A stretch of DNA of 64,000 bases from Octopus vulgaris (lineage: Eukaryota), in assembly GCA_951406725.2 (NCBI GenBank), contig OX597814.1:20894001-20958000 (forward strand). Reading direction: 5' to 3'. The notes beneath the pieces were generated by a model, which was not told the origin of the DNA, did no database searches, and worked only from the letters and a program-made list of their open reading frames with translations. The position numbers and the translations under genes are program-made. This document shows positions 14,608 to 37,812 of the stretch, piece after piece (the first letter of the stretch is position 1; the number at the start of each line of letters is the position of its first letter).

Positions 14608-15766
14608 CCAATAATGCTGTCTGTGAAGCATGTTTCTTACCGTATAAACAATGTGTGTATAACGCATGTGTTTATTGTACTTGTAGATGTATGCAGGTTT
14701 GCAGCATATCCTATGCATACATTTTAGTAATGATGTAGCACCCATCGACAGATGTATAGTACTCGTTATTAAATGGTGTTTTACTATAAGTACCAAGCAT
14801 TCCACCTATAGAGCAGGCTAGTGAGGTTGCCACATAATTTTGTAACACTGTTATTTCTACATGCAGGATAACAGAGTACCTCGACCCACCAATATTATCC
14901 TGTTGTTTGTGAAATATTAGGGTTAACTTTTATATGGGGTCTATGGAAAATTCCCAAAGTTTTGGCCAAAAATTGGTTGACTTTTACATGATATTGACTA
15001 TTACTTGAGTATATATGGTATTTCCTTTTAATGCTTTTCTCCACAAAGCAATGGAATCTTTGTGTAACATTGATAATTTCACCAGAGGTTGTTTTGATGA
15101 CAAAGGAAGTCAATTTCTTAGTATGTATAAGGCGAAAATTTTAGTACTAGCAATATAGAAATAAAGATTTTGTTGCAGTGTATGTTGTTGAATTATTTAA
15201 GAATTTCAACCGACTTGTTTTTTCCCTTGGGGAGTAAAAGCCAAATTGTAAAATGTAGCGATATTTTAACAACAAATGCAACTTAAATTAGAAATCGCAA
15301 GAAAATATTTCAAGTGGTTTTGATTGTTTTATGAAATATTAAGGATGAAATGTAACACTATTATTTAAATAAAATTTGTGTGTTTTAAAGGGTATATCCA
15401 TTATCCATACACTTTTCTTTAATAAATATTCTCGATACCAAACTGTGCGAAAACGCTCTTGGTTCTATAATTCAAACTTTCACATCCATTTTCAAACCAC
15501 CGGCTTAATGATGACACACTTATTTTACAAAATACTTCATTATTTTCAAAATTAATTTAAACAAAGGCTGTGTATTTAACAGAAATATAACAGAAAGGAA
15601 TTAATTTAGTAGTAAAGGCTACTTTTATGAACTTGAGGGGCAGTTTTTATAGCTTTACCATGCTTTTGTGAATAGTACGACAGACTTTGATCTATGTGGG
15701 TACAAATAAAGGGGAACATAAAAATTTATTGATTGTTTTTTCAGGCAAACTTACAATTGTGTAAGA

Positions 15767-15947
15767 ATGTATAAGGCGAAAATGTTTCAAAGAGGATTTC
15801 AAATGCCAAAGATGTCTCTTGGACAACATCAGAATTACCCGAAAACAAATAGCAATTTGAGAATGCATATTACCAATTTAAAAAGCAATAAGAAGTTTAA
15901 AAAAAAGTCAGATGATATATTAATGGATATTATTAAAGAAGCTAAAG
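15767..15947 (+). CDS. NKRF-like gene, coding exon 1 (exon starts 15745; basic NLS-like KSNKKFKKKS)
   Basis: Acceptor TTTTTTCAG| ends at 15744, ATG at 15767, donor AAG|GTATTT at 15948 (phase 1). G+AT from 26050 makes GAT in frame with the 26052 ORF. Confidence 0.7.
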
Positions 15948-16464
15948 GTATTTAGATTTATTTCATTGTAATGAAAAAGTTTAAAAAAGATATTTTATTG
16001 AAATTTTATTAAATATTTTAGAACTCAGTATTTATTTTGCTGAGTTGGCAGTATACCAAGTATATAAATTTTCTTTTTAACCTGGAAGTCAGCCAACTAT
16101 CAAATATATTTCACAATGATTATACATGGTAATTTTCTGTGCCTGCATGCATGCATATGTGTGCATGTATGTATGAGAAATTTGTATAGAGGGCTTGTTA
16201 GGGTACTGGTTAACCAATTAGCAAGACCGATTTGTAAAGTATTTTGTCTGTTTACTAAAGTCACCTAGCTGTTAATAGATGTTGCAGAGCAGGAAAATCT
16301 CGTAATTTTAAATGGTGTCAATAGAGAAATTTAATATTTAGTGTTGAGTTTTGAACACTTGGAACATTTGGAGATCAATGAAAGCTCTCACTTATTTGAT
16401 ATCAAAACTAAATTGCTAGTTGTCTTCAGTGACAATGCATCATATAATTGGAAAATATACAAAA

Positions 16465-16832
16465 CACACCATTCGAGCGTGATCATTACCAGTGTCACCT
16501 TACTGGCACTTGTACCAGTGGCACGTGAAAAACAACATTCGAGCAAGGTCGTTGCCAGTGCCGCTGGACTGGCTCCTGTGCAGGTGGCATGTAAAAAAAC
16601 ACCATTTGAGCGTGGCCGTTGCCAGTACCACCTGATTGGCCCTCGTGCCTGTGGCACATAAAAGCACCCACTACACTCTCGGAGTGGTTGGTGTTAGGTA
16701 GGGCATCCAGCTGTAGAAACTCTGCCAGATCAGATTGGAGCCTAGTGCAGCCATCTGGCTCGTCAGTCCTCAGTCAAACTGTCCAACCCATGCCAGCATG
16801 GAAAGCGGATGTTAAATGATGATGATGATGAT
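16465..16832 (+). mobile_element. Non-autonomous element with RTE-type 3' tail
   Basis: Reverse-orientation copy of the 9948-10720 family, ending GGAAAGCGGATGTTAAA(TGA)n. Shorter tail copies at ~17143-17310, 21935-22065, 42812-43010 and 44470-44645. Confidence 0.75.
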
Positions 16833-17547
16833 TGCTGACTTAATAATTGACTAGCATTGAACTTCGTATCATTATATAAATGAGTTAGCTGCAAGGAACA
16901 TACTTGTTTACATTTTGATAAGTATTTCTCAGTTGTGTGAGAAGAGGATGTGAGCAAATCGTAATGTATTAAATTACATTGAAATTAGTAGGTTCAATCC
17001 TTATCTCTGACTACTGAAAAGGTGCTCATAAGTCTAATATCTTTGAGACTTAATACATATAGACAGAAGTTCATTTACATATGACTTAATACATATGAAT
17101 GAGTTCATATTTTTAGGGGGCCATATAATTGTCCCTTTAACTCATCATCATCATCCATCCAGTTTTCCATGCTGGCATGCGTTAGATGATTTGACCAGAA
17201 CTGCTAAGGGGCTCCATCAGGCTCCATTGTCTGTTATAGCATGGTTTTTTACAGCTGGATGCCTTTCCTAATGCCAGCCACTCCACAGAGTGTACAGGGT
17301 GGTTTTTATGATGTCAGAATGTCCGAGTAGTCTAAAACACCAAACTGAAGATACATATAGTTCACCTTAACTGGACAGCCGAAATTGCAAAGGTAATCTG
17401 GAACTCGACTGAGGAAAGAAAACTCCAAATAACTTGTCCTTGTTTTCTTTGTATCGTCTATCTGGATCTTTTGTTGTCCCTTTTTTGTATCACCTAACTT
17501 GTCTGGATGTTTTGCATTCTAGTCCTGTTTTTGTATTATATATATAT

Positions 17548-20500
17548 CATCATCATCATCATCATTCAACGTCCGCTTTCCGCGCTAGCACGGGTTGGAC
17601 GGTTTGACCGGGTCTGGGAAGCCAGGGGCCGCTCCAGGCTCCAGTCTGAATCTGGCAGAGTTTCTACGGCTGGATGCCCTTCCTAACGCCAACCACTCCG
17701 TGAGTGGATTGGGTGCTTTTTACGTGCCACCTGCACAGGGGCCGGAGGGTCCGGCATCGTCACGATCGGTTCGAGCATTTTAACGTGTCAGCGGCACGGG
17801 GGCAACGAGGTCCGGGGTACTTTGGGGATCCAGAGGTCCAGGGTAGGGGATCGGGGTACTTTGGGGATCCAGGGTACTTTGGGGATCCGGGGTACTTAGA
17901 ATGGGTAGGGGGTATGTGGAATTGCTGCAGAAAGCAGCCCGGGTCTTTGTAGTCACAGCATATCTCCAGAGATCTCGGTCCTTCGCCATTGCCTCAGTGA
18001 GGCCCAATGCTCTGAGGTCATGCTTGACCACCTCATCCCATGTCTTCCTGGGTCTACCTCTCCCCCTGATACCCTTAACTGTTTGGGAGTGGCACTTCTT
18101 CACACATCTCTCTTCATCCATCCGCAGCACATGACCATACCATCGCAAGCGTCGCTCTTGCACACCACATCTGATGCTTCTTATATCCAGCATTTCTCTC
18201 AGGATACTTACACTCTGTTTTGCGTGCACACTGACACTACACATCCAGCGGATCATGCTAGCTTCATTTCTTTCAAGTCTACGCATGTCTTCTGCAGTCA
18301 CAGCCCATGTTTCATTACCGTGAAGCATGGCAGTTCGCACACATGCATCATACAATCTACCTTTTGCTCTGAGGGAGAGACCTTTTGTTGCCAGTAGGGG
18401 TAGGAGCTTTCTGAACTTTGCCCAGGCTATTCGTATTCTAGTGGTGATACTCTCTGTGCATCCACCTCCGCTACTAACTTGGTCTCCCAGGTAGCGGAAA
18501 CTATCAACTACTTCTAGTTTCTCTCCCTGGAGTGTGATGGAATCTGTTTTCTGAGTGTCTGTTGTGTCTATTGTTCCTGTGCATCTGCCGCACATGAAAG
18601 CTATCTTATCTGTTAATTTCCCTTTAATGTTGCTGCACCTCTTATGTGTCCATAACTTACATTGGGTGCATCTTATGGAGTTTCTACCTGTACCTTTCCT
18701 ACAGGTTGAGCAGGGCCACCTACCCGAGGGGATGTGTGCTGAGTACCTCTTGCTGCTTACTAATACTTTGGTCTTTGCTACATTTATTCTAAGGCCCTTT
18801 GATTCCAACCCTTGCTTCCACACCCGAAATTTCTCTTCTAGTTCCGGTAGTGATTCTGCTATGAGAGCTAGGTCATCGGCATAGAGGAGCTCCCAGGGGC
18901 ATCCCGTTTTGAATTCCTCTGTTATTGCCTGAAGGACTATGATGAATAAAAGGGGACTGAGGGCTGAGCCCTGGTGCACACCTACTTCTACTCGGAATTC
19001 TTCACTATATTCGTTGCCAATCCTAACCTTGCTGACAGCCTCTCTGTATAGAGCCTGTACAGCCCTTATTAGCCATTCTTCAATCTCCAGTTTCCGCATC
19101 GACCACCAGATAAGGGAACGGGGAACCCTGTCAAAGGCTTTCTCCAAGTCTACAAAAGCTATGTAGAGGGGTTTATCTTTAGCTAGGTACTTCTCCTGCA
19201 GTTGTCGGACCAGGAATATAGCATCAGTGGTGCTTCTACCTGGTACAAAACCGAACTGCATTTCATCTAAACAAATTCTCTCCCTAATGAGATTGGTTAT
19301 GACCTTCTCTGAGACCTTCATCACCTGGTCCAACAGTTTGATACCTCTGTAGTTATTTCTATCTAGAGCATCACCCTTACCCTTGTAGCAGTTGACTATG
19401 GTACTGCTGCACCAGTCATTGGGTATGGCTCCATTGTGAACTACCTGGTTTACAATGCGGGTGACTATGGCATGGCCCACATAGCCAGCTGTTTTAAGCA
19501 TCTCAGCAGTGATTCCTGATAGGCCAGGGGCTTTGCCTGGTTTCATATCCTTAATTGCCTTATCTACAAGGGAGCTGTCTATTCGGGTAGCTGGTCCCTC
19601 TACTGGGTCAACATTTGGCAGGCTCTCCTCCTCCCATTCATTCTCCTCATTCAGCAGTCTTTCATAATGGCTTCTCCAAGCCTCTTTCTTTTCACTAGTA
19701 GTAAAAGCAAGTGCCCCATCATCCATGCGGACACATTTCTCTCCTATAACATCGCTATTTTCTCTGACACACTGTCTGGCAATCCGAAATACTTCAGCTC
19801 TTTGATCCTCGCGACGCTGGACATTGGCAAACTTCTTCTTTTCTGCTACATCTTTGGCAATGTATACCTGCCGCCCAGCCTCCCTTTTGGCTATCTGGTA
19901 CAGTTCCCTGCTGCCCCCATCCTTCCAGGCTTTCCAGGCCCGTCTCTTTTCACAGATGGCTTTATCTACTGCACTATTCCACCACCACGTAATTCTAGGT
20001 CTGGAAGGGACTTTGCACCATCCACAAACTTGGTCTGTGGCACTCAACAAGCTGTCCCGTAGGAATTTCCAGCTACCTTCTATGTCTGACGTCTGAAGCT
20101 CCTCTTCCCTCTCATCAAATTTCTTGATGAGTATGTCCCTAAATTTCTGACCATGCGAAGGGTTCTTTAGCCTCCAAATCCTTCTTTTCTGGATTGGTTT
20201 GTTTCTTGGAGTCCTTCTGGCCTCAAGCTTAAAGTCACTGATGATTAGTCTATGCTGAGGGATACATTCTTCACCCGGGAGGGTCTTTGTATTCAAGAGC
20301 AACCCTGCATCCCGTTGTCTGGTGAGGATGAAGTCTATTTGGCTAGCGGAGTCTCCTGACTGATAAGTTATAAGGTGGCAGACTGGCTTCTTGAAGTTAG
20401 TGTTGCAGATTGAAAGGTTACATGCATCACAGAATTCCAGCAGTCTAGTTCCCTCATCATTTCTGGTGCCAATACCATAGCCACCATGTACCCCAGTGAA

Positions 20501-21343
20501 GATACCCGATTCCCGCCCAACATGCCCATTAAAATCTCCCCCTACAAAGATAAGGTCCTTGTTACTAGTCTTTGAAGTAGCCTGCAGAAGGGTATCATAA
20601 AAGTTGTCCTTCTGTTTGGTAGTCCCGCTTGTGGGGCATAGGCTGAGATAATCATAGCTGTGCCACTCTGTAGGACCAACCTGAGCTTAAGCACTCTATC
20701 ACAAACCCTGACAACCTCTATGACCTTATCCACCCATTCCTCCGCAAGGAGAATGCCTACACCCCCTACACCTTCCGCGTTACCTTGCCAGTAGAGTTTG
20801 TATCTAAGTGCCTTGCCCGTGAGGACCCTAGCCGAAGCATCTCTCCATCTTACCTCTTGTATGCAGCATACATCAACCTGTCTTCTCTCTAGCATCTCTA
20901 CAATCTCACTAGACTTGCCTGTCAATGTACCAACATTGATAGTGCCAACTCTGAAAACTGGGAAGGAGATGTGGGGGGGACGGGGGGATTCGGCGCCTGA
21001 GAAGAGGAGGGTTGTAGTGGTGGTGATAGTTTTCGTGGTATTTTTCTTTTGATCTCTCTTCCAACCTGACCACGCCGTGGGCAGGAGCTGGTGTTAGCAG
21101 TGGACATTCGTTATCGTCACTGAGTAACGTAATTAGGTAGAGGAAAGAAATACAGATATTCTAGAGTTGAGTTGGGGAGGGGGGGGTCCAGTTGAGGCGG
21201 GTAATATAGGGGAGCAACCAGTGGGGAAGGTTGGGGTAAGGAGGAACGATGGCAGGAAGGGTTGGTGTAGGTTCCTAAGAAATAAAAACGTAGGATATTA
21301 CGAGGCGGGAGGGTACTAAAAGGGGATGGTCGGATTGAGGCAG
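17548..21343 (-). mobile_element. Near-full-length RTE-clade LINE (APE endonuclease + RT + PHD finger) with two frameshifts
   Basis: Endonuclease motifs RVGTINVGT, CCIQEVRW, GGDFNGHVG, SQIDFIL; RT motifs KAPG, QFGF, FVDLEKAFD, GVHQGS, YADD (18872-18883); C4HC3 finger at 18581-18718; (TGA)n tail at 17548-17565; (TA)n on both flanks. Frame breaks at ~20615 and at the G7 run 20973-20979. Confidence 0.95.
17780..21107 (-). pseudogene. RTE ORF, interrupted; open without stops from ~20614 to 17780
   Basis: ORF-track pieces 20922-21107, 20542-20925 and 17780-20302 join into one EN-RT polyprotein via two frameshifts. Manual translation of 20614-20303 is open (QKDNFYDTLL...GGDFNGHVG...SQIDFILTR). Confidence 0.88.
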
Positions 21344-22472
21344 TATATATATATATATAAATGTGTGGTATGTGTTTGTATGTCTGTTTATGTGCCTGCA
21401 GTGTTCACCTGTTTTTCATTTGTTTTTGTAATGACATGCTTTTGTCTTGTGATGGTTCAATGTGCAATGGTGTGGAGTAACGGCTTTTATTAGAAAGGGC
21501 ATCTCACTGTAGGATAGTGACACAGGCAGTGTCATTCAACTAATATCAGCAAGGAAAGAAAAATGAATGTAACAATGATGATACACACATATGTGCACAT
21601 CCCACATGTATGCACATGTGTGGGTTTATATGTATGTAGACAAACACACACACACACCTATATGCACATCTAATTAAATCTAATTTTGAGTATGTATATA
21701 TATATATATATACATACATACATGTGTATTTACATGTTTGTGTATGTTTTGTGTTTAAAAATGTTTTACTCATACACGTGTACATGTTTTGTATTTTTTA
21801 CCTGCCTCTTGACTGTGAAGGGAGCCTGTGAAAGAGGTAGACCCAGTAAGACAAGGGGCATGGTGGTTGAAACATGATCCTCAAATGTTGGATCTCACAG
21901 AGGCGATAAATGATCAAGCCGAGTGAAATTGCAGTCCTAGTGGTTGGCATTAGAAACCAAGCCAGATCAGACTGATACTTGGTACAGCTCTCTGGCTTAC
22001 CAGTTATGGTCAGACCATCTAACCCATGCCAGCAGGAAAGTGGATGCTAAAATGATGATGATGATTACTTTCACAGAACTCCTTAATTTACCATTTGGTC
22101 AAAATACTGAACTTCTGTTGCTGTCCTTTTTTCTTCATGTCCATTTGTTTATACCCCAGCAGCTCACATGTTGCTGGTACACTCAAATTGCAGAATTTTG
22201 TTGGAAGGAGTTGAAATTATGATATTTCGTCAATAACTGACAGAGGGTTGGAGCATGTTTGTATTGGTTTATGCAGTTCTTTTTTCTTGTAAATTTCTTT
22301 GTTGCACTTCTGTGCCATCTTTTTCATTATTATATATACATAGATACCCATTCACCCATCTTTGCCCACTAGTCTTGGGAAGGTCATGAGGGTAATGTCC
22401 TCAGACACCTATACATACATGCATACATTCATTAATTTTGCATGTTTTTCTGTACAGCATGGGTAGAAAAAT

Positions 22473-23168
22473 ACACACAGGCACAGAATTTGAACATTAT
22501 ATTATTGATGAACACAGTTAAGTGTTTCTGATTTTTCTTTTTTCTTTAATGGCATATTAAACTAAAATAAAATAGTACTGAACTACAAGATTTTGTTACT
22601 GATCACTTTATTTACAGGAGAAAATTGTGTAATTAATGTTGATTTCCATCACAGTCCAAAGCCTTAAATTGCAGTTGGAAACCCTTCTTGTGACTAGTTT
22701 TTCAAGCAAAGAATTTTTTAAATACTTTTTCAAAAATGCAGAGCTAGTGTACAAATTTGTTAAAAAGGAATTGTCAACTGAATTCACCATTTGTAGAGAA
22801 TGTAAACATTCACACGAACATGTGTGCGCCTGCTTGTGTGTGTAATATATATATATATACACACATTCATTAGAAGCATGTTTTGTGTTAGTACATGTGC
22901 ATCTCTACATAAGCATATATTGGCTCTTTTTTTAAATCAAGTATCTTATTGTTACATTTTACATTTTTTTATCTATTCACACAGACACAGAATTTGAACA
23001 TTATATTGATGAACACTGTTAAGTGTTTCTTACTTTTTTTTTTTTTTATTAGCATATTAAACTAAAATAAAATAGTACTGAACTACAAGATTTTGTAGCT
23101 GATTGCTCTATTTACAGAAGATTGTGTGATTAATGTTGATTTCCATCACAGTCCAAAGCCTTAAATTA
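22473..23168 (+). repeat. Local direct duplication of ~195 bp (22473-22670 and 22979-23168)
   Basis: Near-identical CACAGAATTTGAACATTATATT...AACTAAAATAAAATAGTACTGAACTACAAGATTTTGT...CATCACAGTCCAAAGCCTTAAATT in both copies. Confidence 0.85.
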
Positions 23169-23301
23169 TAGAGAGAGCGGTTGATTAAAGCAATATCTGC
23201 ATGTGAATTTAACCCACAAATATTATATGCTATTGTAGCTACTAAGTCTTTCCAGTCTTAAGCTATTCATAGTTACTTAACCCATTTATTATATTTCTAA
23301 T

Positions 23302-23517
23302 TAAGGTGGTGTCCTGGCAGAATTGTTACCATATTGGACAACATGCTTAGTGGCATTTCTTCTGACTTTATGTTCTCAGTTTAATTGCCCCTGGGGTTGA
23401 CTTTGCTTTTAATCTTTTTGGGGTTGTCAAAATAAGTACCAGTTAAGCACTGGGGTCAATGTAATCGACTTATCCTCTCTCCCAGTATTTCTGGCCTTGT
23501 ACCAAAATTTGAAACCA
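23302..23517 (+). mobile_element. SINE family B copy (others at 40132-40349 +, 55945-56140 -, 62005-62190 +)
   Basis: Shared head AAGGTGGTG-CTGGCAGAAT and core GACTTTGCCTTTCATCCTTT-GGGGT-GATAAAATAAGTACCAGTT. Confidence 0.75.
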
Positions 23518-24099
23518 TTATTATATTTCTAATTAAACACTCTGTGTTCTAAAATAACTTGAACTAGTTTCATAAAACAACTATAACTTTATATAAATAT
23601 GGGTTTTGGAATACAAAAAAAGTTCTTAAATAAATTTATTGCATAATTTTTCTCTCACACCTGACTTTATTACTTGAAGATATGGGTAAATTCAGTAAAA
23701 TATGAAATTATTAAAATTTTGTTTTAAAATCACTATAGAAAATAAGTTGTTAGATAAAATTCATCTGAGTGGTAGACAACTAAAAAGAAACAATAATGCA
23801 GACTATGAGTTTTCAGTTATACTAAAATGCACATAAAACAAGTCTGTCATAAAGGTAGAATAAAACAAGCTACTGGAATTTATGATTGAAGAAAACCTAG
23901 CGAATGAAACGTATATGCATATACATAATAATTTAAAATTATGCAAAATTACATGCAAATACACAATGATTCACAAATATAAATTACAAATTGTCACTCA
24001 TCTTACTGATAAATTAAAATTACTGGTGAATAAAATATATATAAGGAGGTAAATTTGAAAAAGTATTTTATAAAAATTAAATTCTCTCTCTCTTTCTAC

Positions 24100-24132
<33 letters not shown>

Positions 24133-24169
24133 TACACACACACTCTCTCTCTCTCTCACTCACTCTTTC

Positions 24170-24204
<35 letters not shown>

Positions 24205-24210
<6 letters not shown>

Positions 24211-24840
24211 AAATAGAAAGATGAATTTTCTTGTTACAGATTATTCAAAAGTTTAACCGATACCTGGGTAGCAAAAATCACAGCAGAAAATACTTGACAA
24301 GCAGGCCGAGGCGAACACACGAACACAAAAAATTCTTTCATCCGCCTGACAGGTTTTCTCAGCAGTGGTCATTGTGTAGCCCCCCTCGCCAGCACACGGC
24401 CGCGCACACTTAGGCCAGTATACACATACATGCTTTTAGGTAGTTTTTTGTCTCGCCCCCAAAAATACACCCAGTATTCTTAAATTATTCAGAACATTAG
24501 AGTTGGTCACACAGAACATCTCCACTCCCCTTGCTCTCACCCACTAGAACTGACCGCCGCCTGATCTGTAGATATCTTCAACGCACCAAATCCCCGATTT
24601 CAGCGTACATTGATAAACAGTTCAGCCATGGGCTCTTAAAGAGCCTCCTCGTTCGAATTGCTGCGCCTCTGTTCTGTTTTGTTCTGTCAACGGAATTCCT
24701 GTTTTTTCCTGATGAGAAAGCCACAATATGGTACCCTTATTTAATCAGAATTTGGAAATTTGTGGCCTTTGAAACATGTGTAGAATGTAATAAAAGGAAT
24801 TCTGTACAATCTTCGTTCAACTCCATTTCTTCCATTCAAT

Positions 24841-24842
<2 letters not shown>
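24205..24842 (+). mobile_element. Non-coding ~640-bp Penelope/retrozyme-like insertion in a (TA)n microsatellite
   Basis: CpG-richer island bounded by (TA)n on both sides and carrying a hammerhead motif near its 3' end. Confidence 0.6.
24690..24805 (+). ncRNA. Type I hammerhead ribozyme motif
   Basis: CTGATGA at 24709-24715; stem II GAAAGCCACAA/TTGTGGCCTTT (10 of 11 pairs); GAAA at 24771-24774; minimal stem III AC-ATGT-GT; cleavage triplet GTA at 24780-24782; stem I TTC/GAA extended by ACGGAATTCCT/AGGAATTCTGT. Confidence 0.7.
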
Positions 24843-24881
<39 letters not shown>

Positions 24882-24883
24882 TA

Positions 24884-24973
<90 letters not shown>

Positions 24974-24998
24974 CACACATATATACACACATACACAC
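24843..24998. repeat. Compound (TA)n/(CA)n/(CT)n microsatellite, representative of many (e.g. 1213-1243, 13795-13935, 24083-24204, 29961-30045, 63094-63190, 63824-63875)
   Basis: Directly visible dinucleotide runs. Confidence 0.95.
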
Positions 24999-26049
24999 AA
25001 ATTATATAGTCTTCCTGTCTGGAAACTTGTATAGCATACCACTCTGTATAGAGCAACTCTTGTAGAATACACATTGGAAAGGCATTTCAGCTGACTACAC
25101 ACTAGGCGCTTTCCTTTTGATGTTGGCATCCATTCTTTTTTTTTCTTTCTAATATCTATTTATAGAGATTAGCTGAATTTCGAGGATTATCCCACTGGCA
25201 AGCTTTTGCCTCTCTCTCTCAAAGGCTATTTATTTTTGCTGAATAGCCTGTCTGTAATTGCTTTCTGCATCTGTTCAAGCTTGCAGTTGGTTGCATTGCT
25301 TTCATTATCATTATCAGAGCTGTTGTTGGAGTCACTATTTCCACTATTGGATATTAATTTCAATTCTCTATCACACAGTTATGCTTGTATATTTTGGTAA
25401 TCTTTCTGCTACTTCAGAAAATTGTGTATCAATTGTTTATCTAATGAAGCATTGGATTTTCATGAACATAGTAGTTAGATTTCTATTGAAATTCTCATTT
25501 GAGTTTGCATAGGTTATTTTGAGCATTTTGGGACAGGTTGGTAAAAGAAGCCAAAATAATTTTTGGGTGGTTTTGGTTGGGTTGGTATTGAAAGTACCAA
25601 TAGGGGATCCCAGATCCAGTGGTCAGATGACTAAAACAATTAAGGGCACAGATCTGAGATCAACTGATAGCCTTCTCTTATTTTGCTTAGTTCCTAGAAG
25701 TTACGTTGCTAACTCTGCAAATTAGCGCATTTATTGATTATGAAGTATGTCCATACATTTGGGAGCCCTACATTTATTTACAGCTTCGTTGAGTGGGTGT
25801 CAGTGATATCAACCAACAACTGTTCAGTTAGTATTTGACACCCAATCAATTTGACAAGGTGCTTTTAAAAGTTAGAATGTAAAAATGATAAATAATGTAA
25901 GTACCTTGATAAGTCAGCCAATTGCAATTGTCTATGTTAGAAAATATTTTGTTCATGCTAAGAATAAACAAATAACTTATTCTAATTTTTGCTGTATTAT
26001 TTGTGATAAGATATAATTCATCCTCTTATTTTTATTTATTTATTTGTAG

Positions 26050-26779
26050 ATATGCGCTCCAGTTTTCTTCAGTCTAGAAATGATGGGATGAAAAGACCAC
26101 TTGATACCAGAATTGTACGATCTTCTTATAATCTGCCACCTGAAAATAAATATTTTAAAAATGAGCATCGTGACTCATTATATGCAAGCGATCGCTTGAA
26201 TGAAAAGTATAGCTACCCTGTTGAATATCCTCCAATGAAGAGGGACTCTTCTGAAGCCAATTCCAATCTAGAAATGGCATCTTTGAGAGTCTCTCTCAGA
26301 AAGTTACAGCATTACTTAAGTGACAAAGAATTTACATACAATTCAGCCATTATGTGTCTTGATCGAGCTCTTCATGCTACACATTGCACTTTCTTTTTGG
26401 ATTATAATGTTAGGAAGGGCTACATTGAAAAAGAAGGAATACTTAAACTTGGAAGTTTAGCCATTGGTTTTGGAAAATCTGTTTCTGAAGAAGAAACTCA
26501 GAAGTTGGCATATATTGATGCTTTGAGATCCTTAAAGTATAAGAGAATTGAAGAAATCTTAAATTCAAGTGATTGCAATGAAACAAAATATTATCAAGAA
26601 CCAAATAAACCAGCCATACTGTTAATTAAAAATAAATCTATTTCTGAACTTGTTATTATAGAATCAGATTTGTTTGCATCAGATCGTTTCAAATTCTCGG
26701 TATCTATACTTCACAACAGTGTGGTAGCTAACAAAATGAAAATAAAATGGGATCATGCTGTTGAACTGGGTACACACAA
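26050..26779 (+). CDS. NKRF-like gene, coding exon 2 (dsRBD-like domain 1 and N-half of dsRBD-like domain 2)
   Basis: Acceptor TTTGTAG| at 26049; 243-codon open frame; donor CAA|GTAAGG at 26780 (phase 2). Motifs NSAIMCLDRAL...IGFGKSVSEEETQKLAYIDALRSL and ELVIIE...SVSILHNSVVANKMKIKW resemble the NKRF/CDKN2AIP-type dsRBD repeats (recalled). Confidence 0.85.
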
Positions 26780-27304
26780 GTAAGGCACTTTCTATTATAA
26801 TTCATGTATGTAAGAGAGAAATTACTATGCTTGTGTGCACGTATTGTAAATGTATAATGAGTGTTGAGTGAAAATATGTTACATGATGACAGGGGAAGAC
26901 ATATTCAGTAGATGTGGAGGGAAGTAATGATGCCAGATCTGTGATTAATGACCCGACTCATGGATGAGATTATTTGGAATCATAATGGGTAGTGAAAACC
27001 AGTCAGTCCATGCCAGCATTGGAAAGATGCTAAAATGACAAATTTTGTTTGTACAACACAGAAGTGTACATTATTTTTAATATATTTTTGAGAAATAACA
27101 ACAACAAAACTAGTAAAGGAAGTGATGGAATTCAGGTTTCCAATTAATAAAAATGGAATTAAATTACAGATGATAGAAATAGAAAAATTTCAGTTTGGAG
27201 AAACATTTACTATAATTCAAAGCCATAAATAATGATAGACATTGCATTATGTTGAAGAAATGGGATTTGGTATTTGTGTGTGTATGTATATATATACATA
27301 CAGA

Positions 27305-28517
27305 CAGACGGTGCGTAAGATATTTGAGGACAGATTTATGTGTATAAAAAAAACATAAAATAACATAACTTTATTTATCAAAAAATGCTATGAGGATAAT
27401 AAACCTTCTTTTCTATAATGTTATTCAATAAAGCCATCTTCAGCTTCAACATCTGCTTCTATATGAGATCTAAATCATCTACATGCTCGAATCAAGTGGT
27501 CCTGGTTCATTTTGGACATTACTCTGACTATGGCTGCTTTCAAAGAATCTTTGGTGTTATGGGTGTGCTCATTGACCTCTCTCTTAACAATGCTGCACAT
27601 ATAGTCCACTAGATTGAAATCTGGGGAATTAAGAGGCCAAATGTTAGGGGCTGTGTGATCATGAAAATTTTCAGCCATCCATTCTTGTGTTACTAGAGCC
27701 ATGTGTGATAGTACAGAGTCTTACTGAAATACATATGGCCTTCCATTGCATACACTGTCTATCCAGGGCTTAACAATTATTTTCAGGACCTCAATGTAGG
27801 CAGCAGAGTTAACTATAAGGCCTTGTAGAAAGAAGTAAGGAGGTATTACATGTCCTTCATTGCTGACAACCAATAAAACCATGACAGTTGCAGGAAATTA
27901 GGTATGCATAACACTTGGAAGTTCAGAAGGGTCTACACAACTATCTGTCATTTCTTCTGTTAACTTTTTGATCTTGGTTGGCGTTTTTCTTGAGAAAAAC
28001 CAAATCAAATCTACTGGAATTTTCAGTTTGTTTAAGAGCCTTTTAGATCTGTTGTAGTGATTTCCTTTTGCTTTTTATGATAAATTGACCTTTCCTCATC
28101 ATATAAAACATATCTGATGTCTCCGTGGACAACATTTCTGATTGTCCTTCTGACACAGAGAAATCTTTTGCAATTGACCTCATGGACTTTCTGGTCTGTT
28201 GATCTTGCTGGATAAATTCAAGTGTTCTGATGATTTCAGAGTGTTTAGAATGCTTTTTATGCTTTGATACTGGTGATACATTTCCATCTTCAGTCTCTAG
28301 CTCCTTACGAACTTTGTAGATGAAACATCTGGCAACTTTTAAAAATTGAGATATTTCTAAATCACTATGCTCAGCCTTTATAACAACATCCACTTCCTTT
28401 CTTGATTAAGCTGAGGGTCTACCATTATTATTTTCTGAAACAAAGATTATACAGAGTTAGCAAAAAATGCAGCAATGACCTGAAAAAGGTATGTTCTCAA
28501 ATATCTTATGCACCATG
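27305..28517 (-). mobile_element. Decayed Tc1/mariner element (maT/DD37D-like) with both TIRs
   Basis: TIRs GGTGCGTAAGATATTTGAG / CTCAAATATCTTATGCACC; transposase remnants KAEHSDLEISQFLKVAR, VMVLLVVSNEGHVIPP, WPLNSPDFNLVDY. Confidence 0.85.
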
Positions 28518-29373
28518 TATATAAATAGTATAGCTTTGTGTTAAAGCTCAAGTTAGAAAGAGAATGTAGTCAGCCACTGGACTATTATGTCATTCAGTAT
28601 AAACTGAACATGCTCTCTCTCTCTTTCCCTCTTTGAAGATTGCTTTATGTTAAAATCAAAGCTAATGCAAGCATAACTGAACAATCATATTTTGTTTTCA
28701 AGAGAATGAATTATGTACTCTTTTCTTTAGGTGTATACATCCAAAATAATTGTTATGGGATAGATCCTGCACAAATCACTATTTCCAATCCTTCCATCTC
28801 AAATGTTAGCCCTCTAGCAACTCCTTTCTTAGTCAAATTTTTCCAGTAGTTGTTGACTTTCGAAAAGTTCAAGAGGAGCATTAGTAGTATCAGTCTTACT
28901 AATCTAGGAGTGTTTGTAAAATTTTGAGTACTGTTCCTTCCTCCACATCCAGCAAGTAAAAAAAAAAAAATCCACGGTTTATAGTAGTAAAGATGGGTGG
29001 TGATAAAGAGAGAGTGAGTGATGACTGTTGATATAAAAAAGTTAAGGTTGGGGAGATTGAATATAGTCAAACCCAGTGTTTTCCCTCATTATACTACTGG
29101 TGTGATGTGATAAAGGGTGATGGTAGATCAAATAAATGTACATTCCAACCTCCGTCGCCCACTATTTCTACATCAGTTATTCTATACTTCCATGTGTTGG
29201 ACAGGTCTTTGACATAGCATGTTGCCGCTTGATTACAGTGTGTTGTTTGTGTGCGTCAAATTTGAATGAGAGAGGTTGTGAAAGAGCATGCTTTTATGAT
29301 TCTGTTTTATTCAATTTTCATGGGGTTTTTTGCATCAAACAACAAAAATGTACCGATAAAATTATAATCTTAA

Positions 29374-29589
29374 CCCTTTAGCATTTAAACCAGCCATATC
29401 TGGCTGAAATATTGTACCTGTTTTATGTTCAAGCTGGCCAGATCTGGTTTCTCATACCACCCCTACAATATCATTCTAAAAAAAGTTACCTCATCAAAAT
29501 CTCAAAGCTACAAGATAATGTGTAATTAATTCAAAACAATGTGAATGAATAAGCATTACTTTTGACAAAATAATGTGAATGCTGAAGGG
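29374..29589. mobile_element. piggyBac-like MITE with TTAA target duplication
   Basis: TTAA|CCCTTTAGCATT ... AATGCTGAAGGG|TTAA. Confidence 0.75.
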
Positions 29590-29957
29590 TTAAAAAATAA
29601 AACTCAAATATTAACAGAATGTACCTTTAAGGAACCTTTGTTCATGGAAAGAAAACATTTTGACTTGTACATTACATACTGTGGCATTGTTCAATTAATT
29701 TTGATATATGTATATATTATGATCATCATTGTCACCTAATGTTCACTGTTGCATGGGGCAGACGGAATTTATTGAGACCAGTTTTCTATGTTTAGATGCC
29801 CTTCTTGTCACCTACCTTCACATGCTTTCAAGCAAGGTAATATTTTCCCATAGTTAGATATGTTTTTCTTGAGAAAATAAAAACTAATCATCTTGCTTGT
29901 TAGATAATCATATACAACCATCACATGATGCCTAGGCAAGGGTACATACATATGAAC

Positions 29958-30024
<67 letters not shown>

Positions 30025-31463
30025 TATATATATATATATACATAATACACATGCACACACAATGGGCTTCTTTCAGTTTCCATGTATTAAATCCTCTAAC
30101 AAGGCTTTGGGTTATAGTAGAAGGCACTTGCCCAAGGTGCTGTGCAGTAGGACGGAACCCATGACCACATGGTTGGGAAGTAAGCTTCTTAACCACACAC
30201 ATACACACACACCCTTGCTTTTGTTTAAAACCAAAGTTTTGATTATTCTTATGATATCAAGCATACTAAAACTTCATCAGGCTATATAACAGAGAATATG
30301 TACAGAGTGTGCTGACATTCTAACACTGCACTACACATTATATAGCAATACATTATTCACACTTTTATTACTTCTTCCACCATTGTGTATTCTTCCTATC
30401 ATTCTCTCTTCCTCCCCATCTAGCTACAAATACTGTTTTTCTATTCAGTCTCCATACCAACAACTGATGTATAGAGATATTGTATCATTATCTCCTCCAT
30501 TATTCCCTTTTTTTTAATCTCCTTATTTCTATTACTCTGGTTCTCTTTACTCTCTTGCCCTGGCTCTCTCCTTTAACACTCTAAATTGTTACTTTGAATG
30601 AATAGAAGCAACATAGGGTAGAGATGACTTAGTCTTGCCAAAGACAAGAGAAATCTCTAGTGCTGTGCATCCAGTATAGTTTGTAAAGTGGTTGAATTTA
30701 GGAAGGGCATCCAATGTATGAGCTGTGTCAAAAATGGAATGTCCAAGTGTGATGTGGTCCTCAATCTGTCTAGGAGAGGATTAACTCCAAATGAATAGAC
30801 ATGGATCATGATGACCTGTCCAGCCCATGCAAGCTTGGAAAGGAAAATTGAAATTAATGATGATAGTGATGATATTTGTTATACAATGCCAAAGTTATGT
30901 ACTGTGTACCTAATTACTTCTAATGAATTTCAAAGAATCAGGAATATCATAAAGTGGCTAAGTTCACCTTGTCTAACTCCACAATAGTCGCCATCAGGAT
31001 CTAGAATGGATATTTGTCAAAAGAAAGCTGCTTTTATACAAGCTACTCCATACCCTGTTGTCCTATTTTTAACTTTAATAAACTTCCTTTACTTATTGTC
31101 TCTGAGTTCACTCAACCCACATTTCAAGGCAAGGCCTATAAATTTTAATGCAATTTGCAAGCCTTATATATAACCCTCCATGTCATAGGTTATTACTTAT
31201 TTAACTCTGCTTTTCAGTGAGTTAATGCAAAGCACTAATTCCACATAGCTATGGTAATATTTATTCATCCAGTAACATAGTCTGTCTAGTGTCTAAAGTT
31301 TTCATAGCATCTATATCTGCCTAAATTTTGCCCAACTATTGCATACTCTTGAAAAATATTTTCTTTAATAGTTTTGGCTTGTTACTATAAAAATAATTTA
31401 TTGATTACATCACATACTCCATATTATATTTATTTCTACTTGTATTATTTATTTCATTTTCAG

Positions 31464-31590
31464 GATGAGTGTATATGTACAGGAAAAACTTGTGGGAACC
31501 GGACGTGGTACCACAAAACCTGATGCTAAGAAACATGCTGCTTGTGATGCACTCTTCAAGTATTTTTACAAAAATAATGTCATCCTTCAG
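31464..31590 (+). CDS. NKRF-like gene, coding exon 3 (C-half of dsRBD-like domain 2)
   Basis: Acceptor TTTTCAG| at 31463, donor CAG|GTAATA at 31591. Translation (K)MSVYVQEKLVGTGRGTTKPDAKKHAACDALFKYFYKNNVILQ fits the dsRBD G-x-G-x-[ST]K-x-x-A-K-x-x-AA-x-x-AL signature. Phases match both neighbours. Not in the ORF track. Confidence 0.88.
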
Positions 31591-32628
31591 GTAATAAATT
31601 CTGTTATTACTAGTTTTTAATGTTCATTTTTCTAATCAGAGAAATTCACTTGAAATAGATACTATTTCAATTCAACCTACCAAATCATCATCTCTTTTCA
31701 TCAAATGCTCAAATTAATGCTGTTCATTGTATGTGCCAATGGATATCTATAATGAGCTGTCGATTTTTTTTTTTGTTTTGTAGTAATTTCAAAATTTGAC
31801 ATCTCCCTGTTCTAGCATATAAATTTGCAGTACAAGATCACATTTGTGAAGAAGTTCTGAGATCTATTTTTTTTCGAGCTATTGTCCTTACATCCATCAC
31901 CAGCATACATTTATTTCACTTGAGTGTCAGTCTATTTTCTTTGGTAACTAGTCTTCTGAATATTCCGGAGTTGATTCTTCTGCTAATTGAATGCATATCT
32001 GCTCATAATTTTATAGTACCTTGTCAGTTTTCCATTGTCTCTTTATTATACCTGTTGTTTACACTGATTTCTTTGTTTCTGCTTAGTTAGATTGAATAAC
32101 AATTTTTGCTCTTCCAACATTTTTGTAAATTTATTAAAGGAGCAAGCATGGCCATGTAGTTAACACTTCAAAGCCATGTGGTTTTAGGGGCAATCTCATT
32201 GTAAGGTCCCTTGGGCAAGTATCTTCTATCATCATGCTGGCCATGCTTTGTAAGTGAAATTAGGTAGTGTGGAAACTGTACAAAAGCTCATATATGCATG
32301 TTTGTCCACCAGTGGCGAATGTCAGGAATGGCATTTGGCCATAGGATCTCTCGAGAAGCTTTGTCAGCATGGAAAAGACAGACATAAAAATGATGATGGT
32401 TTTGCAATAAGAACTTGATATTTAGTTTAGAACTGTTCAAATCCTTTATTACCAAGTGTCTAAGTGTTCCTTAACTTGGCTTTCAGTATAATCATTAAGA
32501 TAGACTAAATGATTTAAAAAAATCATTCTACTACACTCAACTTTCTTTAGAGCACTAAATGCAAAACCATTTGCTCTTAACTGAGTTTTATTTCATCTAA
32601 TCCAACCCAACTAATTATCTTGTGTTAA

Positions 32629-33855
32629 TCTCTCTATATATAAAACTGAGAATGTGTGTCTGTCTGTGTGTTTCCCCAAAACTTGAGAACTACACAACCA
32701 ATTTCATTCAAATTTTACACATGCCTTACTTAGAGTCCATGTAGTGTCATGGGCAAAAAAAATGTTTAACTTCTTGCCTAGAGCAATATCATATCTTCTC
32801 CACTATTTCAGTATTACGTGTTAAAAGTGAAACAAAAATATCTCTCTATTGTATATGGATGTATATATATATATATATATTACAAAATATAAAGTTATAT
32901 CTTGAGATTGTTAGTGACAACAACGCTCAAAATATATAACAGACTGGAATAGTAGTGTTCCAATGAGCTGTATACACTTTTTAATCCGAGGGGAGGCAAT
33001 GCGAGCAGCAACTACAAGAGCACTACAAAATCCACAGAAAGATCAAACACATACATATATTCATATATTCATTTATATCTACAGAACAGACATAAAGCCC
33101 GACATTTAGAAATATATAGTAATATATAAACATCATATAAAAATATATTGTACGCATAAGATCCACTCGACGTTCCATAAGAAATTTAGAAATAAAAATT
33201 GCAATAAAAGTTAGAGGTAATAATAACAATTGAATTAAATATAGTAAGTAGTAATTAAATATATTTTATTTTATTAAAATGGTAATTAAATCGTAATATA
33301 ACAATTAAAAGAAAAAATAGCAATTAGTATAAAATGTATCAAGGACTTGAACTCGAATATGTGGCTTTGCATGAATGGGAGAAATTAAAAGATGAAAAAT
33401 TTAATTGGGTGCAGAAGTGAATTAGTCCAGATGGAGCTGTGCGCATACCATTTACTATAGCTGCTAGATTGAATTATATGCTTATAAAGTAGCATTCAGT
33501 ATCTATGAAAATTTTGGGGAGTACATAATGTCTGGTCTTTCGCATATAGCCGGTATGTAAATGTGGATTTGTTTCCGTGTACTATGTGTTGTGTGTAAAA
33601 AACATCCTGACGAGGGGAGTGTCAATTTTAAATATATGATATGTTTCATATTAATTGGTGCACCTCCGAAACAGCCCGTAGATGAACTTTTATGTATTTT
33701 TGTAAATTTGTATGTTTATCTTCTATGTATTTTTCTCTGGAATTTTAATTCGTCATTTTATATGTCGTTGTATGTTTTATAAACCCAAATTTTTAATTTA
33801 ACAAATTTATACCAAACTAGCACTATGACCCAGCAATGCTGGGTCATAATGCTAG
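32629..33855 (+). mobile_element. Non-autonomous Helitron with nested Penelope-like DNA
   Basis: A|TCTCTCTATATATAAAAC 5' end; 3' hairpin ATGACCCAGCA-A-TGCTGGGTCAT (33825-33847) followed by CTAG|T; A/T insertion site with no TSD. Confidence 0.8.
33590..33697 (+). ncRNA. Type I hammerhead ribozyme motif
   Basis: Stem I CATC/GATG directly flanks CTGACGA (33607-33613) and GTA (33678-33680); imperfect stem II GGGGAGTGTCAATT/AATTGGTGCACCTCC; CGAAA at 33667-33671; minimal stem III AC-AGCCC-GT. Confidence 0.68.
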
Positions 33856-35628
33856 TTTTGCTATATTTCTTACATCTTCATAACTTGATACATTCAATCT
33901 TGGAGTGATAGATGTGATATATGTCAATTTATTCTCTTTGGTATCTCACTGACCACTCATGAAGGGTTAAAGCTTTCTTTGTTTTCATATCCTTAATTGC
34001 TGTACTTAACTCCTGATTGTTTTTTGTAGCTAGCACCTGTTAGTTGCATTGTGTTAGACTCTGTCTCTATTCCATTCAGTATTTATCATTGCCACTGAAA
34101 ACTATTCCATCTGTATAATTTTCAAACTTCTCTCTAATAGCTCATAATTTATAATACTTTATACTCTCTCATCATTATGACTTAGAACTTTGTTTTCTTT
34201 AGATATTCAAATTTCTGTATCACCAATAGGCTGGAATTAAAAGGGTATGCATTTGCTCATTCCATTTTTGCAATCCTTTCCAAGTTTGTTGCATATCTCT
34301 TACTGTTACTTACACTTAACACTCTTTCATTGCATTCTGTCTGGTTTGTAGCTCTCTAGTTTGCTTAGTCTATGTTCTAGCATGTGTTATTCATTAACAC
34401 TGACAAGTCATTTATATTTTAATGTGTATTTTCTTTTTAAACATATTTATACTATTTATAAGGATAACATTTTTTATGTCAATGACTTAGTTAAACATCA
34501 AATCAGTCATTTTCAAATGATGTTTTAAAAGTTGAGTGGTGTAGATGTTACTATACATTGTTGATATCTTTTTTATTTGATTTCTGTACAATTTGGGACT
34601 TTTAACATAAGATTTATAAAGTATATTAATTTCCTCCCTTAGAATTCATTGTCAGCTATTTCATTTCTTGATATGTTTGAATAGTTGGTGTATCTCATGA
34701 CATGTTTGGAGATATATAAACTGAAGTGGTTGCAGTTTTAAAGAATGCAAATACTCAATAAAGCTTTACTACAATGCAAAAACATTTTATCATTGGGAAG
34801 CAAAGCAATGGATGCTTTCAGGATATTCTTTAATTTAATGATACATCTTTATTGCTTTGTGAAGTGAAAGCAAATATATATCTATATAATTTCAGCTCTC
34901 TTCTACTTTTAAAAAGTTTACTTTAATTTCTTAATGAAGTGTATCAAGAATGCTTTGTCAAACTCTTTATGATTTCTTGACACTGGTGTGTCTTTTGATT
35001 GAGGAGTGCTTTTTGTTGTTATCTTAGTTGCAGGGTTAATGTATACATGAACTTAAGAATAAGCCAAAAGACAATTGTTTTGTCAAATCTGTTGGGGTGA
35101 TTATGCAGCTCCTTGAAAACTTGTCCTTTCATCTTTAGGAATCTTTGAAATAACTACTCCATCTACAGTGTCCTTTGATTTGTCTACATGTTGCAACATT
35201 CTTCTGCATGAAGTGATGCTCTCTTTCAATTCTATGCAGTGTTCCTGTACTTGATGTATAGTTTTTATATATGTGTATAATATATAATGAACACTTTTCT
35301 AGATTTTGAGTCTATGAATTATGAGGCCTTATGTATACATATGAATGAACTGCTTCCCAGTTTTCCCTGGCCATATGTTGGATGACAGCTGGTTATAGAT
35401 TTCACCACATAAAGCATTTTTGCAGCGTGTAGTTTTTCCCTAAGATATTAAACTCAATAGGAATATAGAAAATTTTCTATGATCATTGAGACAAAAGAGG
35501 TTACCTTTCAAATATTCATATCCTCCTCCTCATAATCGTCATTATTATTATTATTATTATTTTAATGTCTATTTTTCTATGCTACTTATATTTAAATGTG
35601 TGTGTATATTATATTTTTTATACATCAG

Positions 35629-37767
35629 GTTGCTTCAGAAGTTGAAAGTGAAATCTGTATTCCCTATTCAAATGTAATGTATCTTGTTGGTGAAGTTAAA
35701 AGAAGAAGGAATTCTTATTCCGGTGATGAATACGCAGATGATGGTCCCTTTGCTACAGTAATAGAAAACCTGATTGACAGCTATTCATGGAGTGTATTGA
35801 ATAATGAACTCTTATTTGGCCCTGGGTTTTTTGGTGACCAAGTTGTATTGATTAAAAAAATTGGTGAGAAGAAAAATTTACTCATGCGGAAAAAAAGATA
35901 CAAAGATGGACATTACTTCTCTTTACATACTGGTGAAGACTATTCTGATATCGTAAAATATCTCCTAAAGAATGGTGGACGTGGTGGTAAATATCGCATT
36001 GTTCCGAAATCAGATATACCTGAATTAAAATCTGCAAAATGGCAATATTATCAGAAAGGAGTTAATACTTCTAACCAAATGACAGGAAATATGAATGAAA
36101 TGTCAGATTATTATAGAAATTATAATGATGGCAATTTTGTAAGGAGAGATGACCAATTATCACACAGTGAGAATGTTCGTAAAAATCTTAGTGATTCCTG
36201 CACAAATATGAGCCAAGATCCTTATGATTATAAAGGCTACAATTATGGTAAACATTCTGACAACAAAAGAGACTATGATCGCCATTTTTCCAATCCTAAT
36301 TTTTCCAAGTCAAGCGTAAATTTGGTGGAATCAAAACAGATTTCAAACATGGGTGCTAAGCACATAAATTCAAATTCCAGCTATTATGATAGGCGCTATG
36401 TTCCAGATGATTATGAAAGAGAAATAAATGTTTGTAATCGGATTAATTCTGATGCTAATCATAATGAAAGAGGATTATATTCTCACAATCAAAGATCTTC
36501 AATGAATGATGATGGTAGATATAATTCTATGGATGACCAAGATAACAGTTTTCATCATTCAAAGCCTGGTTATAGTCAGAGGTCTTATGATTTGGATTGT
36601 AACCCTGCAAGGGATCGCATGCTTTCAACAGATACAAACACTTATGACTCAAGGTATTTCAGAAAAAATTTTGACTCAGCGACAGATGAGAAAATGGATG
36701 ATTTTACTTATAGTTGTAATAATAGAGGTTTTGATTTAACTGAGTCTAATGATAATTATCATTCAAGAACTGTTTATGAATACGATAATGTTCAAAACAG
36801 AGCTGGTTTTAATCCTTCATCAATGTATAATTCTCGTGATATCACTGCTGCACCGAAAGAGCATACTGGTTTTAATCAAGAATATGGTGCGGGAAACCCA
36901 GTTCCAAATTATGACAGGGAATTCTCCCGCTTACCTGACCAATATAACAAGCCATATATGTATGCATCAGGAAATGAAAAAAATTTTCAAATGGAAAGAA
37001 GAGAAGAAATGTTTGATAGAGATTTTCATCCAATGTCTGGAAGAAAATTCAATGAAACACCTAGTTTTCAGAATAAACCAATTCGCCAAAACTCACTCGA
37101 TATGTCTTTTAACCAAATTGACAATAAAAATGTTAATGTTAACAGAATGGATTTAGCACATGGGTTTGGAAATACATATGGCAATGTCAAAAGAAACAGT
37201 GGAAATAATGCATATAACAGAGAATTGAATCTCAGAGAAACTGCCAGAAATATTGGCAACATCAGATCTGTTGGAAAAGATGTTCCCAAACCTTGGTTAC
37301 CAACAAATAATAAACTCGCTGGCAATCTATCTATGACTGCAATACAAACTTTAAATGTGCAAAGATTGGGACTCAGCAAATTAAGCAATAGAATTTCATC
37401 ATCTCTTATGAACATGACTCAGTCACCGAATAACAACCAAATAATGCTTTTGAAATTTCTTACCAAGAAAATTGCTCAGAATGCTTTACAAAACAATGTT
37501 AAGAACATACTTGCAAATGCAAAACGGTTGTCAAATATTGCCAAAGCCCGTCAAATGATGGAACAGGCTAAAAAGCCTTTTAATGTTCAAAAGAAGCCCA
37601 ACTTAAAAAACAAATCAAAAAAAGCGAAAGCTGTCCAACCTCCACGCAATCAAGCAACACCTAAACAAGCAGCACTGAAGCAAGCAGCACCCAAGCAAAC
37701 TTCAAATACTCCAAAAGTCACAAAAGTTAAACAAGCCAGTGTACCTCCAAAAAAAGTGAAGAAATAA
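35629..37767 (+). CDS. NKRF-like gene, terminal coding exon (degenerate R3H-like domain plus ~590-aa low-complexity tail)
   Basis: Acceptor TACATCAG| at 35628, phase 0, in frame with the 723-aa ORF; TAA at 37765-37767. IENLIDSYSWSVLNNELLFGPGF...DIVKYLLKNGGRGGKYRIVP resembles the NKRF C-terminal R3H region (recalled). Total CDS 181+730+127+2139=3177 nt = 1058 aa plus stop. Confidence 0.88.
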   Translation, partial: VASEVESEICIPYSNVMYLVGEVKRRRNSYSGDEYADDGPFATVIENLIDSYSWSVLNNELLFGPGFFGDQVVLIKKIGEKKNLLMRKKRYKDGHYFSLHTGEDYSDIVKYLLKNGGRGGKYRIVPKSDIPELKSAKWQYYQKGVNTSNQMTGNMNEMSDYYRNYNDGNFVRRDDQLSHSENVRKNLSDSCTNMSQDPYDYKGYNYGKHSDNKRDYDRHFSNPNFSKSSVNLVESKQISNMGAKHINSNSSYYDRRYVPDDYEREINVCNRINSDANHNERGLYSHNQRSSMNDDGRYNSMDDQDNSFHHSKPGYSQRSYDLDCNPARDRMLSTDTNTYDSRYFRKNFDSATDEKMDDFTYSCNNRGFDLTESNDNYHSRTVYEYDNVQNRAGFNPSSMYNSRDITAAPKEHTGFNQEYGAGNPVPNYDREFSRLPDQYNKPYMYASGNEKNFQMERREEMFDRDFHPMSGRKFNETPSFQNKPIRQNSLDMSFNQIDNKNVNVNRMDLAHGFGNTYGNVKRNSGNNAYNRELNLRETARNIGNIRSVGKDVPKPWLPTNNKLAGNLSMTAIQTLNVQRLGLSKLSNRISSSLMNMTQSPNNNQIMLLKFLTKKIAQNALQNNVKNILANAKRLSNIAKARQMMEQAKKPFNVQKKPNLKNKSKKAKAVQPPRNQATPKQAALKQAAPKQTSNTPKVTKVKQASVPPKKVKK

Positions 37768-37806
37768 TTTAATTCCTCTTTCAAATTTTCATGTATTCAG
37801 TATTCA

Positions 37807-37812
37807 AATAAA
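37807..37812 (+). terminator. Polyadenylation signal candidate of the NKRF-like gene
   Basis: AATAAA 40 nt after the stop codon, followed by a T/GT-rich downstream tract. Confidence 0.5.

Follow-up and report, generated by a model that had tools for sequence, protein, structure and literature searches.

Gene structure and transcripts

The DNA analyzed here, called the window throughout, is a stretch of 64,000 nucleotides (nt) from Octopus vulgaris (assembly GCA_951406725.2, contig OX597814.1, positions 20,894,001 to 20,958,000 of the forward strand), and it contains a spliced gene related to the ribosome-biogenesis factor NKRF. The coding sequence of this window gene (15767-15947, 26050-26779, 31464-31590, and 35629-37767) amounts to 3177 nt and, as proposed in a first-pass annotation of the DNA, its four exons join in phase to encode 1058 amino acids (aa) followed by a single terminal stop. 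The spliced sequence is the same as that of the 1058-aa NCBI protein CAI9714850.1 (P0001) of Octopus vulgaris, which also bears out the suspicion that the host is a coleoid. All introns are of the GT-AG type, with phases 1, 2, and 0. Exon 1 (15746..15947, +) follows an acceptor at 15745/15746, contains the ATG at 15767, and encodes a basic N-terminus of 61 aa without an XTBD. Exon 2 (26050..26779, +) encodes the first double-stranded RNA-binding domain (dsRBD-1) and the first half of the second (dsRBD-2), exon 3 (31464..31590, +) has 127 nt and flanking phases 2 and 0, and exon 4 (35629..37767, +) contains the linker, the R3H-like domain, the entire tail, and the stop codon.

For the stretch 25900-38300, four of 20 listed sequencing runs, presumed to be RNA and originating from four studies, were examined. 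Junctions 26779/31464 and 31590/35629 were each joined inside one contig in all four runs; junction 15947/26050 lies outside this stretch and is supported by X1-type annotations in three Octopus species. Three of the four run contigs end at the exon-2 acceptor, which would fit the annotated alternative 5′ ends; the shorter annotated isoforms start at M62 within exon 2. The octopus gene is real and spliced. Its orthologs, none of them characterised, occur in O. sinensis (99%), O. bimaculoides (95%), and Argonauta hians (60%). In two of the four runs, a 12-nt in-frame insertion was seen at 37642-37646 in a basic repeat of the tail. Coding differences between runs and window occurred at 26184, 36715, 36863, and 37646, those of the A>G type being indistinguishable from alleles without matched DNA.

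Domains of the encoded protein

The window protein was modeled by AlphaFold2 with a 28-row alignment; an earlier model from four close sequences, with a mean predicted local distance difference test (pLDDT) score of 30, was not used. Confident parts are residues ~135-231, 260-375, and 385-480, as well as the helix that spans 948-993, with the remainder below 50; over residues 140-480, the pLDDT is mostly 70-94 and lower in linkers. By structural search, both dsRBD folds were recovered with middling scores (best Z ~7-8 against dsRBDs). Pfam dsrm matched the second domain only, under the cut-off (E 0.0025), and a sequence search of the PDB gave a single weak dsRBD match (E 0.086). A homodimer prediction for aa 130-350, in a run in which the alignment was not used, scored 0.00.

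Hidden Markov models (HMMs) specific for the four repeats of the family described below assign dsRBD-1 (26262..26561, +; aa ~132-231), which has an extra N-terminal helix, to repeat 2 (31 bits) and dsRBD-2 (26652..31590, +; aa ~262-346), which is interrupted by intron 2, to repeat 4 (50 bits). For repeats 1 and 3, the repeat HMMs gave nothing above 8 bits in the window protein, and tblastn with four-repeat proteins, used to look for lost repeats inside the introns of the window, matched known exons only. The RNA-contact motif of dsRBDs is KKxAK, while type-B dsRBDs stabilise complexes instead, according to the part of PMC11309768 available. At this place, dsRBD-2 reads KPDAK (31516-31530, +), with two of three lysines kept, and dsRBD-1 reads EEETQ (26487-26501, +; aa 207-211). 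In oyster, scallop, Potamilus, and an octopus paralog (gene A, see below), the motif of repeat 2 is KKDAK or KKETK, whereas O. vulgaris, O. bimaculoides, and Argonauta have EEETQ. The earlier proposal that the dsRBDs were kept and bind double-stranded RNA (dsRNA) is thus half supported: it stands as to the fold, which is kept twice, whereas dsRBD-1 shows EEETQ instead of KKxAK and two of four ancestral repeats have been lost. Since the folded domains are 62-77% identical to those of Argonauta, the protein appears to be under constraint.

For dsRBD-1, the structural search ranked TRBP in the RPAP3 complex highest (Z 8.2), tied with RNA-binding dsRBDs, and the leading Foldseek matches of the protein are tandem-dsRBD cofactors. 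A small-RNA cofactor like R2D2, Loqs, or TRBP, the acidic dsRBD of which docks on Dicer or Drosha, would agree with these matches, and the Drosophila XTBD protein CG31301 binds siRNAs, as stated in the accessible portion of PMC10511037. However, any two dsRBDs would give such matches (root-mean-square deviation (rmsd) 13-38 Å over both domains), and the ancestry is that of NKRF, with family repeats called DSRM_CARF by Pfam, so that we regard this role as improbable.

Between dsRBD-2 and the R3H-like domain, where NKRF has its G-patch, lies a linker of 38 aa (35632..35745, +; ~40 aa had been estimated) with a predicted helix at 359-373 and no Gly-Trp motif. G-patches have an invariant Gly-aromatic pair (PMC7132122, in the section available); the linker contains no G[WYF], and no Pfam G-patch match was obtained for the window protein. 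An extra G-patch exon, conceivable in intron 3 (31591-35628), was found neither in six frames of this intron nor elsewhere in the window nor in the run contigs. For the XTBD, PF11952 gave no match on the protein, and a genome-wide search returned two loci, neither at the window gene. Both absences agree with the first-pass annotation. As far as the accessible parts of PMC10511037, PMC7132122, and PMC5435916 go, XRN2 is bound via the XTBD and DHX15 is braced via the G-patch; with both modules absent, the window protein is devoid of the known means of NKRF for either.

The R3H-like domain (35746..36015, +; aa 386-475) ends in the GKY strand of the family. It aligns without gaps with octopus NKRF (19/92 identical residues, E 2e-4), a score reached by 0 of 1000 shuffles, and QVVLIK (aa 417-422, nt 35839) falls exactly onto ERAIMH of NKRF. 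The arginine of the R-x3-H signature is thus replaced by V418 (nt 35842) and the histidine by K422 (nt 35854), an erasure already recognized in the first reading of the sequence, and PF01424 had no match. Model region 373-455 matched the R3H structures 2cpm, 1whr, and 1ug8 in the whole-protein search with middling Z scores of 6.0-6.5 (rmsd 3.8-5.6 Å, 68-77 residues), and an ESM Atlas search with the R3H-like region returned sub-0.9 matches only, to unrelated phage clusters. In the model, an R3H fold appears to be present with its signature lost. Model and structural search agree on two dsRBD-like domains and an R3H-like block, as previously described, and the NKRF alignment is in accord with them for the latter.

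The large new tail after this block had been put at ~590 aa; ~580 aa were found, in frame within the last exon. Most of it is a predicted disordered region (36031..37425, +; aa 481-945), which is N/S/D/R/Y-rich and occurs only in octopod-type sequences. RGG motifs number 0 in the tail vs 9 in the N-terminus of the oyster protein. Compared with Argonauta, 209 of 386 aligned tail residues (54%) are identical. A long predicted helix follows (37432..37569, +; aa 948-993), with 35/45 aligned residues identical to Argonauta; a genome search with the helix only revealed no second copy that could have been its source. The Lys/Pro/Ala-rich basic end (37570..37764, +), where aa 993-1058 include 20 K+R but not a single D/E, is a candidate nuclear or nucleolar signal.

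This very basic C-terminus, together with a dsRBD plus R3H-like scaffold as in NKRF, could also be expected of a nucleolar dominant-negative competitor, which would bind the same pre-rRNA structures as NKRF without XRN2 or DHX15 and thereby damp rRNA processing. CDKN2AIP provides a precedent of a relative opposing NKRF (PMC10511037, in the portion available), but it acts via its XTBD, which is absent from the window protein; furthermore, R3H identity to NKRF is just ~21% and the RNA motifs are weakened. Such a competitor seems unlikely to us, if a little less so than a small-RNA cofactor.

A G-patch-free NKRF-like family in molluscs

Searching 1.84 billion representative sequences with exon 2 gave three matches, one of which led to the protein P0011, which aligns across the entire dsRBD-linker-R3H core of the window protein with E 4e-18 (vs E 2e-4 for NKRF). 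A search with P0011 yielded 16 proteins among 1721 candidates, and a 9-row profile search yielded 21 of 7996 scored proteins, comprising 12 named bivalve rows, two octopod, and seven other rows. The family covers at least 12 bivalve species, with Mercenaria, Mytilus, and Crassostrea added by further searches; gastropod or non-mollusc members did not appear in these word-based, not exhaustive searches. In Dreissena, one chromosome carries several members of the family whose locus numbers are close together, which suggests a separate local expansion.

In bivalve members, the N-terminus is RGG-rich, four dsRBDs are present, and the end is G-patch-free like that of the window protein. In a Pfam scan of 28 proteins, XTBD, G-patch, and R3H matched NKRF only, and dsrm matched 27 of the 28; DSRM_CARF matches were obtained for the family repeats. 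The R3H histidine is absent in all 19 family rows examined, the arginine survives in two, and the family linker, which is free of G-patch motifs, measures 70-100 aa vs 111 in NKRF. Alignment of the family profile to NKRF by hhalign (96.6%, E 5.9e-10) spans the last dsRBD to the C-terminus. The window protein shares with the family the last dsRBD, the short G-patch-free linker, and the His-less R3H-like domain. As it has only repeats 2 and 4 and no RGG, instead of four dsRBDs and an RGG-rich N-terminus, the window gene represents a derived subfamily. On these sequence comparisons, the losses of G-patch, XTBD, and the R3H histidine are old and common to the bivalve and cephalopod four-dsRBD family, contrary to the initial view of lineage-specific losses.

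A separate bivalve accession in a table of PMC11817969 is called 'NKRF-like', a name which suggests that bivalves may keep both NKRF and the G-patch-less gene. No paper on mollusc NKRF paralogs, octopus NKRF, or six locus IDs of the family was found in the literature outside supplements and subscription journals. The family is apparently undescribed, although supplements may list its loci.

An involvement in ADAR editing had been hinted at for the window gene, and an octopus host, dsRBD folds, and fast divergence would suit a coleoid-specific dsRNA-binding regulator of this process. No evidence of such a link was found, and the occurrence of the family in bivalves removes the main reason for suspecting it. 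Because of this occurrence and because determinants of dsRNA binding have disappeared from the window copy instead of being added, with the four-repeat gene A expected to bind dsRNA better, as judged from its sequence, we hold this role to be very improbable.

Octopus paralogs and probable duplication history

Genome profile searches returned two XTBD and three R3H loci. Canonical octopus NKRF lies at C1:151.31 Mb as a single-exon open reading frame of 646 aa, annotated NKRF-like, with XTBD, dsrm, G-patch, and R3H matches; it carries two dsRBDs plus R3H and is intronless. The window gene is therefore a paralog of a canonical NKRF present in the same genome, as had been proposed. The second XTBD locus (C8:59,243,577-59,243,790, +) is CDKN2AIPNL/PAXT-1-like by domain content.

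With repeat 1 of the oyster protein as query, the octopus genome gave matches at C1:52.56 Mb (52% identity), at C1:30.27 Mb, and weakly at NKRF. Gene A (C1:52,560,300-52,568,500, +) has four dsRBDs and an R3H-like end without G-patch and is the conserved octopus counterpart of the bivalve family. Having four repeats and three near-canonical basic motifs, it would be a better candidate for dsRNA binding than the window gene. Gene B (C1:30,273,648-30,275,219, +) is an open frame of 524 codons with repeats 1-3 that ends at a stop; no exon for repeat 4 or R3H was found in the 50 kb fetched.

Exon-intron structures were compared between gene A and the window gene. Intron 2 of gene A has phase 2 and interrupts the same lysine codon as in the window gene, the middle exon having 124 nt vs 127 nt; intron 3 has phase 0 at the aligned position; and intron 1 has phase 1 in both genes and is not alignable. 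From the introns and motifs shared with gene A, we infer that the window gene arose by DNA-level duplication within the family. In trees of the core with 20 and 19 rows, from which P0009, gene B, and near-duplicates were excluded, the stem of the window gene measured 2.2-2.3 substitutions/site vs 0.85-0.95 for the pair of gene A. P0009 (ENA record) is a fragment of 262 aa with a two-repeat layout like that of the window gene, ends at the intron-2 position, and is possibly a deeper ortholog of it.

Direct remodeling of canonical NKRF, specific to octopus, would likewise explain two dsRBDs and an R3H domain in both genes, and the long branches of NKRF and the window gene meet in the tree with NKRF, which was flagged as a possible artefact. 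The introns and motifs shared with gene A, the single exon of NKRF, and a similarity to the G-patch-less family far higher than to NKRF largely refute such an origin.

Interpretation

We consider it reasonably probable (about 0.6) that the spliced window gene evolved rapidly after duplication in an NKRF-derived mollusc family and encodes a non-catalytic, probably nuclear RNA/protein scaffold and not a helicase activator. In an early mollusc duplicate of NKRF, the XTBD, the G-patch, and the histidine of R3H would have disappeared, and four dsRBDs and the RGG-rich N-terminus would have been acquired. After a second duplication at the DNA level, indicated by the shared introns and motifs, the window copy would have dropped repeats 1 and 3, its repeat 2 RNA-binding motif would have turned acidic, and extension of the last exon would have supplied the long disordered tail. 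In the resulting protein, dsRBD-2 with KPDAK might make a weak, structure-specific RNA contact, assisted by a basic R3H-like surface, and dsRBD-1 might dock proteins in the manner of type-B domains. Condensate formation and nuclear targeting could be served by the Y/R/N/D-rich tail together with the basic end, and the conserved tail helix could be a partner-binding site. Recruitment of XRN2 and bracing of DHX15 would be impossible via the known modules of NKRF.

Several points weigh against this scaffold interpretation. A single canonical NKRF served as outgroup, and the approximately unbiased (AU) test, with p=0.47 for a cephalopod clade, allows both a cephalopod-specific and an older duplication. 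P0009 shows the two-repeat layout yet has an intact basic motif, and the final dsRBD in the rest of the family is also without a complete KKxAK. Given the tied structural matches, the type-B status of dsRBD-1 is a proposal from sequence, and with repeats 1 and 3 gone and an incomplete motif, the protein may bind no dsRNA at all. Its RNA binding, its localisation, and its partners are all features that we infer.

In the octopus genome, canonical NKRF is thus accompanied by three G-patch-less derivatives, with four repeats, with three repeats and truncated, and with two repeats plus tail, respectively; additional weak paralogs may exist. That octopus expanded an NKRF-derived multi-dsRBD family to three genes on chromosome 1, with the window protein as an adaptor that combines an RNA-binding dsRBD, an acidic dsRBD for protein docking, and a condensate-forming tail and controls how ADAR or Dicer reaches duplex RNA, is a speculative combination which we find scarcely more credible than a plain ADAR regulator; if true, the window protein would be a lineage-specific regulator of coleoid recoding. 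The window gene is a clean example of domain loss after duplication, with no new mechanism. The family would seem to be a new dsRBD family from a ribosome-biogenesis factor and provides candidates for cataloguing cephalopod dsRNA-binding proteins.

Other features of the window

Intron 1 contains a retroelement of the LINE (long interspersed nuclear element) type at 17783-21093 (-), where two long frames that overlap encode endonuclease, reverse transcriptase, and a PHD-like finger. DNA-transposon remnants with DDE and HTH Pfam matches are located at 4040-4465, 27478-28405, and 44902-45150. Among 76 other open frames scanned with Pfam, three had any match, and Rfam and tRNA scans found nothing.

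Comparison with known systems

The window protein agrees with NKRF in the order of the last dsRBD, the R3H fold, and the terminal strand, all of which are homologous, and differs by the absence of XTBD and G-patch, the replacement of the R3H arginine and histidine, the presence of introns, and the C-terminal tail of ~580 aa. With the four-dsRBD family (Ostrea LOC130052317, Pecten LOC117321995, Mytilus LOC143064217, and gene A) it shares the G-patch-less linker, the xIFGPG-type R3H-like domain without histidine, the GKY end, and, with gene A, introns 2 and 3. In contrast to these proteins, it has two repeats instead of four, an acidic repeat 2 motif, no RGG N-terminus, and a long C-terminal tail, and it evolves much faster.

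CDKN2AIP (CARF) is also NKRF-related, is not known to have a G-patch, and resembles the mollusc family in that DSRM_CARF matches occur in the repeats of the latter. It is, however, defined by its XTBD and acts via XRN2 (PMC10511037, in the part available), whereas the window protein has no XTBD. Type-B dsRBD adaptors, such as TRBP, Loqs, and the protein-binding repeats of Staufen, resemble the window protein in that they combine the dsRBD fold with an RNA-binding motif that is degenerate in one of the repeats; their ancestry is unrelated, and the window protein differs from them in having an R3H-like domain and putative rather than established partners.

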